Below, in pieces: positions 1 to 3,000 of a stretch of DNA of 17,201 nucleotides (positions are counted from its first letter, which is position 1; each line of letters starts with the position of its first letter). The DNA is from a virus. Taxonomy: Duplodnaviria > Heunggongvirae > Uroviricota > Caudoviricetes. The stretch lies in IMG/VR virus record IMGVR_UViG_2529293040_000015, one strand, 5' to 3'. Position numbers: made by a program.

Positions 1-3000
1 CACTGAACGTGTACTGCAGGTAATGGCTGGGTGGAAATCGACAACAACATCGCAGAGAACGCCTTACGGGGAGTGGCCGTAGGCCGGAAAAACTGGATGT
101 TCGCGGGTTCCGACAGCGGTGGTGAACATGCGGCGGTGTTGTACTCGCTGATCGGCACATGCCGTCTGAACAATGTGGAGCCAGAAAAGTGGCTGCGTTA
201 CGTCATTGAACATATCCAGGACTGGCCGGCAAACCGGGTACGCGATCTGTTGCCCTGGAAAGTTGATCTGAGCTCTCAGTAAATATCAATACGGTTCTGA
301 CGAGTCGCTTACAGAACGCTCAACGGTGGGGATTATTCTGGTTACCGGACGCAGCGATCGGATTGACCGTATTGTTGGGCTGGAAATGGGCGCAGACGAT
401 TACGTCACCAAACCGCTGGAGCTGCGCGAACTGGTGGTACGAGTGAAAAATTTGCTCTGGCGAATCGACCTCGCGCGACAGGCGCAACCGCACACTCAGG
501 ACAACTGCTATCGCTTTGCCGGTTATTGCCTGAATGTGTCGCGCCATACGCTGGAGCGGGATGGAGAGCCGATTAAACTGACCCGCGCAGAGTATGAAAT
601 GCTGGTGGCGTTTGTGACCAATCCCGGCGAAATTCTCAGCCGTGAACGTCTGCTGCGTATGCTCTCTGCGCGTCGGGTGGAAAACCCTGACCTGCGCACC
701 GTCGATGTGTTAATTCGTCGTTTACGCCATAAACTCAGTGCAGATTTACTGGTGACACAACATGGCGAAGGTTATTTCTTAGCCGCTGATGTGTGCTGAT
801 AAAAATAAACCGGACGAAATCCCCCTGGTGACAGCGAGCGGCGGATATGTTCGCGGTCGGCATTTTTCGGCGTCATGACTAAAATCGGTGGGCTGACATT
901 ATCAGACACCGATTGCCCCTGTAATTGCCTGATAGCCTGCTCAACCGCCAGTTCCCCCTGCCAGACCATTTGATCGCTGGCTGCCATAATCACTCTTCCC
1001 CGCTTCAACCCGCGATACACCTGATGTGAAAGATAAAACGACACCACGGTAAGCGGCGTTTTCAGGTTGCGCCCTTCCCCCATTGCCGCCTCTGCCGCAA
1101 TGGCCGTTCCGGCAACGACGTCGATTTCTGGATGGCGTTCCAGCATCTCCTGCAACAGGTTACGCTGGATTTCAATATCGTTATCACCGAGCGCAATATC
1201 GACAATACGTACCGGGCTTCCGGCAATGGCTGCGCGAAAACCCTCTACCATCTCCTTACTGCCCCCGGCGTTATCGGGGCCGGGCATCAACAGCACGTTC
1301 AGTGGTTTTCCGTGACTCCATTGCACCAGATATCGCCCTGGTTGATAGCCCATCTGAAACCACGGCACACCAACGCGGCTTTTCACCTGGGGAGCATCAA
1401 TAGCATTTACCAGTTCGATCACCGGCAGACTTGCTACCTGCTTTTGCAGGTCGGGAAATGACGTCGTGCTACTACCGAGCAAAATGGCCTCTGCACCCCA
1501 CTGTTTACACTGGTCGATTTGTGCTTGCTGCGTAGCCAACTGGCTGTAGCCGCCTGCCTCCAGCACTTTTAAATCCACACCGTAGCGGCGAGCAGCCTCC
1601 TGCATACCATAGTTCAACGATAACCAGTATGAATCTTTCAAACTGGGATAAAGCGCGCACAGTTTCCATGCGCGTTTGGCTTTTAGCGGCGTAGAGGCTT
1701 GCACCGTGTAATGCTGTGCATCATGCCAGCGCAACAGGTTATCAGCCGAAAATGCCGATAACATGAAAAGGGAAAGTAGTAACAATAGCAGTACGCGCAT
1801 GATAGCCTCATCAATAATAAGGCTTTATGCTAGATGCATTCCGCTTTGCGACTCAACCTTTTTCACCCAAAGGATGACAAAATTATATAAATCATTTAAA
1901 AATCACATGCTTATAAGTATTTACGGTTAAATAACAGACTACAAAATGCGACAAAACACAACATATGCAGTCACTATGAATCAACTACTTAGATAGCATT
2001 AGTGACCTACAACAGAGCATTAGCGCAAGGTGATTTTTGTCTTCTTGCGCTAATTTTTTGTCAAACACATTGCGTCGTTTGCTGAATTTACAACCATGCT
2101 CAGTATCTCTATAAGCGCAGAGAAATGATGCAGTGGTGGGTGGGCTGGCTTGATGAAAAGGTGGGGTACTCCACCTGAACCACTATCGGAATAGCACAAA
2201 GCCTTGCAATCCAGTGCAAAGTTTTGTGTGCCTCCGTTTGCCCCACCAATATATATTCAGCACAAGAAACACAGCTAAAGCAATGGATGCAGTCTTACCT
2301 GTTGGAATCCCAGACTCACTGTATTGTCATCATGAATAAGAGCTGAGTCGTGCGGGTAGGAGGTTCTACGGGGCATCCCAATCTCTTCGCGGAATTTATT
2401 TTCTGAAAGCACCTCCTCTGAAAAAGCCCCCAACCCAACAGTCCTGGCTTCTTCGAGTAAAAGTGGAGAGTATTTTTGTGATTCTGGTCGGGAACTCTCA
2501 ACTTTCAAACGCTCCCCATTTAAATTGTGGAAAACATGGAGCAACTCATGAAAAACAATAGTCGCATGAAAGTCCACCACGCTAATCCCCTCCCCACAGG
2601 GATATTCAACTGCATTCAGATTACAGTGAAAATCGGAACCAGTCCCCCGATGGTTCTCAGCATCTATATCTCTATGTGCCATAACTCCTAGTCTGGAAGA
2701 GTTGAGGTGTATTACCACTGTTTCTGATTTAAGTCGGGATATTGATTCAATAGCATTCAGGAGTACACGCCCTGTCTCTGTAGAGCCAATCTTATCGAGT
2801 GCTGCTTCAATCTGCTGATATATATTATGATCAGTCCCCTGGAAACGAAGTTGCGGATTATTTTTTATCCATTGAACGCTCGATGCTTTTACAAGAGACT
2901 CGATATCTGTATCTGACATTGAGCTCGACGTTGATGACTGATGTAATACCAAGTTGAGGGACGTAGGGCGCATCAGGACTCCTGAGAATGCTACTTATTA

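Follow-up and report, generated by a model that had tools for sequence, protein, structure and literature searches.

TorR is an OmpR/PhoB-family response regulator and belongs to the TorS-TorT-TorR system, in which TorT is the periplasmic TMAO-binding protein. Phosphorylated TorR is the activator of torCAD, and the attB site of phage HK022 is located between torS and torT; integration at this site raises torS transcription and shuts off aerobic torCAD expression (Carey et al. 2019, PMC6814406). The receiver domain of TorR is formed by residues 1-121 (PDB 1zgz). Insertion sequences labelled "IS66-like element ISCro1 family transposase" are present in 1,684 of 5,426 complete E. coli genomes. Searches of the literature turned up no paper on a torR::IS66 allele, nor any on EPEC strains with a torR pseudogene.

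The stretch of DNA analysed here (17,201 bp, referred to as the window) is the reverse complement of the whole contig AIFA01000045.1 from assembly GCA_000249155.2 of the E. coli DECA collection; the source is a classical EPEC strain and, going by the order of accession prefixes, probably DEC2A. Comparison with related contigs, profile searches and inspection of the junctions led us to conclude with high confidence that a single IS66-family insertion has split torR, with predicted loss of torCAD induction. Disruption of a gene by an insertion sequence is a very familiar event, and the present case is an ordinary one that involves no new mechanism.

Identification of the inserted element

The features identified in the part of the window up to the prophage were as follows.

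1..312, plus strand: right end of a 2,699-bp ISCro1-like IS66-family element; the contig starts inside the element
1..282, plus strand: 3′ end of the tnpC transposase gene, with stop codon TAA at 280-282 (PF03050, PF13817, NF033517)
287..312, plus strand: right terminal inverted repeat (reverse complement, GTAAGCGACTCGTCAGAACCGTATTG)
313..320, plus strand: AGAACGCT, right-hand copy of the target-site duplication, torR nt 207-214 (matches L016:10207-10214)
313..799, plus strand: torR 3′ fragment, nt 207-693 of 693, residues 70-230 and stop (identity with E2348/69, NF008034)
772..1800, minus strand: torT, intact, 342 aa, convergent on torR (NF008185, TorT equivalog)
1801..1872, no strand assigned: 72 bp, all that remains of the native sequence upstream of torT (alignment with the non-lysogen L023 and E2348/69)

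Positions 1-312 were 99.7% identical, over their whole length, to the copies carrying the ISCro1-family label, and the match stopped exactly at ...GAGTCGCTTAC, position 312 (alignment A1). The boundary of the element was fixed by a full reference copy (L012:1113-3811) of 2,699 bp, which contains tnpA-tnpB-tnpC and has TTTTATGT on either side as its 8-bp duplication. When positions 1-282 were translated, matches were obtained to Pfam DDE_Tnp_IS66 (PF03050; profile 249-283 of 284) and to the entire DDE_Tnp_IS66_C (PF13817; profile 1-39 of 39). NCBIfam transpos_IS66 (NF033517) was matched at profile positions 324-386 of 387 with 89.7 bits, which is below the cut-off of 180 bits, a full copy of 99.7% identity scoring 477.9 bits. 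A preliminary description of this DNA had assigned positions 31-282 to an IS66-family TnpC; these profiles bear out the identity of the fragment but not its start, since the coding sequence runs from position 1 and the apparent beginning at 31 is due to an extra G at 19-20.

Where the window has CTGCAGGTAATGG, each of the 4 other aligned copies has CTGCAGTAATGG, and the terminal segment accordingly measures 312 bp in the window and 311 bp elsewhere. The additional base, 20 nt from the contig end, puts tnpC out of frame and gives rise to an apparent stop at 4-6. An error of reading or assembly at the edge of the contig is the probable cause, although the transposase gene may really be frameshifted.

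The three-gene layout tnpA-tnpB-tnpC, which lies outside the window, was seen in the full copies of L012, L002, L014 and L026. Both ends of the element start with GTAA (right, GTAAGCGACTCG..., reverse complement of window 312-287; left, GTAACCGGCTCA...). The repeats are imperfect, the right one matching the left repeat GTAACCGGCTCATTTAAACCGTCTGG at 18 of 26 bases in a hand count made by eye. The element possesses every defining feature of the IS66 family that was open to testing, namely the transposase type, the three genes, the GTAA repeats and the 8-bp duplication.

Junction analysis and location of the torR head

Alignment with the torR of E2348/69 placed the breakpoint at 312/313, position 313 being torR nt 207, the third base of codon 69. 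This agrees with the preliminary description, which placed the beginning of the torR frame at about 313, immediately behind an IS66-type terminus. The same description had held that the receiver domain and the native promoter side were gone. The 5′ part of torR and its promoter were found on another contig of the same assembly, AIFA01000051.1 (L016), which carries torDAC, the torR promoter region, torR codons 1-71 and the left IS end. The end of this contig consists of torR nt 1-214 followed by the left IS end, after which tnpA is the next gene.

With the joint marked by a slash, the left junction on AIFA01000051.1 reads ...CTGCGAGAACGCT/GTAACCGG..., also written ...CCCTGCGAGAACGCT/GTAACCGGCTCATTT... 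The 8 bp AGAACGCT that follow the right end in the window also precede the left IS end (L016:10207-10214); the right junction is CGCTTAC/AGAACGCT and the left one AGAACGCT/GTAACCGG. Both things that had been proposed earlier as worth looking for upstream, an 8-bp target-site duplication and the other IS end, were thus detected. When the element was excised in silico, with AIFA01000051.1 run on into the window at 313 and one AGAACGCT taken out, torR was restored to its 693 nt with no difference from the gene of E2348/69. Because torR nt 1-214, the promoter and torCAD abut the left IS end on AIFA01000051.1, torR is a split gene and not a deletion, and its head, its promoter and torCAD are in the same genome. 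A gene seemingly "beheaded" at a contig end inside an insertion sequence is usually only split by the assembly.

The product of the left junction was forecast beforehand from the window and the left end of the element as TorR residues 1-71 followed by CNRLI, 76 aa in total. Exactly this product exists in public sequences, where it bears the names of strains DEC1E and DEC2D. In at least 7 places its ORF adjoins torDAC and the tnpA of the element; these places represent 4 assemblies (GCA_000249155.2, GCA_000249135.2, GCA_000249215.2 and GCA_965140055.1) and 3 independent read sets.

The joint between the element and torR is situated only 312 bp from the contig end, inside a repeat, and the error-like extra G falls within the first 20 nt, as could be expected if the contig end were a chimera formed by misassembly and torR were intact in the real genome. 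Such an origin is scarcely credible. The identical joint, at the same base, is present in an independent long-read assembly (UFZD01000005.1, L002), and the assembly of the window is one of at least 7, independent read sets among them, in which the complementary joint occurs with the exact 8-bp duplication. Since the same-base joint in the long-read assembly is accompanied by the complementary joint in at least 7 assemblies or read sets, the IS-torR junction is no assembly artefact. Misassembly of positions 1-312, which the preliminary description had given as an example of what would overturn its reading of torR, is contradicted by the long-read joint.

In the explanation that we prefer, torR was hit at codon 69-72, in an ancestor of this EPEC strain, by a single ISCro1-like element of 2,699 bp, which inserted with its genes in the same direction as torR and duplicated the 8-bp target AGAACGCT. 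The draft assembler, unable to pass through this repeat, left the two halves of torR on two contigs. We infer that these contigs are still physically adjacent in the source strain.

Coding capacity of the torR fragments

Over positions 313-1800 the window was 100% identical to the torR-torT region of E2348/69. The torR fragment scored 300 bits against the NCBIfam TorR equivalog NF008034 (cut-off 275; profile 70-231) and displayed a complete winged helix (PF00486, Trans_reg_C, profile 1-77 of 77, E = 7.6e-18), preceded by a receiver remnant at positions 69-110 of Pfam Response_reg. Since the fragment begins at residue 70 and the receiver spans residues 1-121, about 52 receiver residues (70-121) are retained together with the linker and the winged helix. 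The earlier statement that only the DNA-binding output domain was left has to be amended accordingly; the retained part of the receiver is one that we take, from the OmpR/PhoB fold, to extend approximately from beta4 to alpha5.

The phospho-acceptor Asp53 is absent from this fragment, as had been claimed for the phospho-acceptor region, and is located in the 76-aa head on AIFA01000051.1. The head comprises about 58% of the receiver fold and has no DNA-binding domain. A complete receiver domain with Asp53 is thus missing from the window torR. By identity, model score and synteny the gene is torR, but it is disrupted and not a functional member.

The first possible in-frame start of the fragment is GTG 326, giving 157 aa, in a frame that is open only from 272, and no Shine-Dalgarno sequence was found before GTG 326 or ATG 386. 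A consensus scan of positions 1-2400 detected 3 promoter-like sites in total, the number expected by chance, and none of them in 1-325; it also detected no terminator-like site in 1-325, between tnpC and the torR fragment. The best promoter hybrid found by eye (CTTACA, 17 nt, GATTAT) matched 8 of 12 bases and would start transcription downstream of GTG 326. Efficient translation of the fragment looks unlikely. The gene tnpC is oriented in the same direction as the fragment, with 43 nt between its stop codon and GTG 326, and read-through transcripts from the element may carry the fragment.

The complete winged-helix domain, the common orientation and the 43-nt gap with no terminator-like site would suit a fragment expressed from the element, either by an outward promoter, as the preliminary description had suggested, or by tnpC read-through, and acting as a phosphorylation-independent or dominant-negative output module that rewires Tor. 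We consider this very unlikely. No promoter-like site is present in 1-325, the best hybrid would start past GTG 326, and both candidate start codons are without a Shine-Dalgarno sequence. The orphan half-domain from beta4 to alpha5 is, in our own reading of the OmpR/PhoB fold, likely to misfold, and the deletion of 250 bp more of torR in a relative (L026, see below) argues against selection to keep the fragment. The earlier suggestions of an outward promoter and of a "rewiring" of TMAO-respiration control found no support. That a TorR tail of 157-161 aa, produced by read-through from the element, occupies the tor boxes unphosphorylated in a constitutive or dominant-negative manner is most improbable; if true, the insertion would have turned a signal-dependent activator into a signal-blind regulator rather than killing it. 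Regarding the activity of the isolated C-terminal domain of TorR, the literature showed only the binding of TorI to that domain.

The same 157-aa "truncated TorR" ORF is recorded in 81 blocks of the collection. At nearly all of the places inspected (L003-L011) it was due to frameshifts in error-rich assemblies, where neighbouring genes were fragmented too, and not to an insertion sequence. By itself this ORF is no marker of the torR::IS allele.

Loss of function through the split remains the preferred reading. Neither piece of torR would give rise to a working response regulator, the tail having neither Asp53 nor an evident promoter or ribosome-binding site. The insertion is most likely a null torR allele, hence with no induction of torCAD by TMAO, and since TorR~P activates torCAD, the TorCAD TMAO reductase is expected not to be inducible in this strain. 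Escherichia coli has further TMAO-reducing enzymes, TorYZ and DmsABC.

Gene order and prophage next to torT

The description of torT as intact was upheld: the gene encodes a full-length product of 342 aa, which matched the TorT equivalog NF008185 with 494.9 bits (cut-off 200) over profile positions 1-345 of 346. It overlaps the 3′ end of torR by 28 nt, as in K-12, and the TorT protein of E2348/69 is identical. At 1872/1873 the native sequence gives way to a prophage inserted between torT and torS, of which this is the end with the effector genes. Exactly this junction is also present in E2348/69, where the prophage adjoins torS with its integrase end.

The remainder of the window, 1873-17201, is the late or cargo end of a lambdoid prophage at HK022 attB. 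The following genes were located in it, in addition to tail fibre genes and lom.

2275-2973: nleD
3441-4460: nleC
4494-5474: nleB2
5836-6414: nleG-like gene
8847-12561: gpJ, split in three ORFs and frameshifted also in the annotation of E2348/69

Overall identity with E2348/69 was 98.7% up to position 14614. Beyond this point the matches of the tail genes (M, tape measure) are to other prophages, a sign that the prophage is a mosaic.

In the annotation of E2348/69, torS (L033:4680-7423) is given as a pseudogene with a frameshift. Compared with K-12, a single nucleotide is missing at nt 2717 of 2745, and the product of 910 aa differs only in the last 9 codons. An earlier inactivation of Tor by way of this torS was considered and rejected, as only these 9 codons are affected.

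Distribution of the insertion among E. coli genomes

A 251-bp probe across 312/313 gave no hit to the IS-torR junction in the 5,426 complete E. coli genomes, so the insertion is rare and its context was taken from draft and long-read assemblies. In this set, torR was uninterrupted in 5,415 genomes; it is close to a core gene. Among the relatives of E2348/69, the insertion is shared by several EPEC draft genomes. Both E2348/69 itself and a DECA sister genome (AIEY01000034.1, L022), which shows 99.97% identity with the window over 313-4100, have an intact torR. Because these relatives, one of them nearly identical, keep an intact torR, the insertion happened recently, within a sub-lineage of E2348/69-like EPEC.

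As torR is near-core and so rarely interrupted, a lineage of classical EPEC in which it is lost, and whose strains already have a prophage at the torS-torT site, would represent a predicted natural knock-out of TMAO-inducible respiration, which may be of modest use to students of EPEC metabolism or of the Tor system.

Rearrangements at the element in related genomes

In one relative (ADUL01000067.1, L026) the 5′ part of torR, the element, the 3′ part of torR and torT are on one contig, so that the linked arrangement does exist. The left junction is shared with the source strain of the window, and 250 bp of torR beside the right IS end, equivalent to window 313-562, are gone. The right joint of this contig (4236-4239) accordingly reads ...CGCTTAC/GGAGAGCC, 250 bp deeper in torR. 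The loss is an IS-adjacent deletion that removed more of the torR tail.

A different left flank was found in the long-read contig UFZD01000005.1, where the element is preceded by a truncated nleG, then a gene for a DUF4765 protein and btsS-btsR. The flanking sequence there is CCTGTATC, which differs from the duplication AGAACGCT, and the 76-aa torR head product is absent from the recorded genes of this genome. Since btsRS and torR are far apart in K-12 (2.21 Mb and 1.06 Mb, respectively) and in opposite relative orientation, this joint is probably that of a large inversion, extending across the replication terminus.

A comparable event may be envisaged for the source strain of the window. The insertion in torR would still be real, but recombination between the element and an inverted copy would have produced a large inversion, the two halves of torR would no longer be adjacent, and the head and torCAD would lie far from the window. 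We regard this as a tentative possibility and, on balance, an unlikely one. The flank in UFZD01000005.1 is what an inversion across the terminus would leave behind, and the break of the assembly inside the element is taken to mean that the genome holds more than one copy of it. In AIFC01000024.1 (L014), moreover, a truncated phage terminase gene comes next after the torR head and the element, a flank that represents either another rearrangement or, the join being from a short-read draft, a repeat-induced misjoin. On the other hand, the assembly of the window contains the two primary junctions and a perfect duplication, as is equally expected of an unrearranged insertion, and the linked arrangement is seen in ADUL01000067.1. 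We retain the view that the two contigs are probably adjacent. With or without an inversion torR is disrupted, and the functional verdict is unchanged. Taken together, the locus shows one copy of an insertion sequence seeding deletions and, probably, inversions.

Two further observations were made on UFZD01000005.1. Between the complete element and the torR fragment, a 72-bp direct repeat of the right IS end was present (L002:9916-9987, starting with CGCGATCT). A second copy may have entered the terminus of the first and then recombined with it; an error of the long-read assembly is the alternative. An additional inverted ISCro1 copy was located inside gpJ (L002:19025-19026, corresponding to window 9349), and the window is without that copy. 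Going outward from the right end of the element, the 9-mer ACGCTCAAC is found at nearly the same offset in gpJ (flank GGACGCTCAACAAT) and in torR (flank AGAACGCTCAACGG), which could be target preference or coincidence. This motif was not found in the 3 other flanks seen, TTTTATGT, CGCTTTTT and CCTGTATC.

Comparison with known systems

The inserted element resembles ISCro1 in its 99.7% nucleotide identity over 312 bp. The full copies in related contigs are 2,699 bp long and have in common tnpA-tnpB-tnpC, imperfect GTAA repeats and an 8-bp target duplication. The window differs from these copies in holding the last 312 bp only, with the extra G at 19-20. Likewise, residues 70-230 of the torR product are identical to those of E2348/69 TorR, but residues 1-69, including Asp53, are cut off by the element and are on the other contig.

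The locus is also similar to that of strains with a prophage at HK022 attB, its prophage junction being in the torT-torS intergenic region, 72 bp upstream of torT. To a pathway that the prophage had already changed, the insertion in torR adds a second, independent hit. The two differ in kind: the mechanism described for HK022 attB changes torS transcription and leaves Tor inducible anaerobically, whereas the insertion sequence in torR removes the regulator itself.
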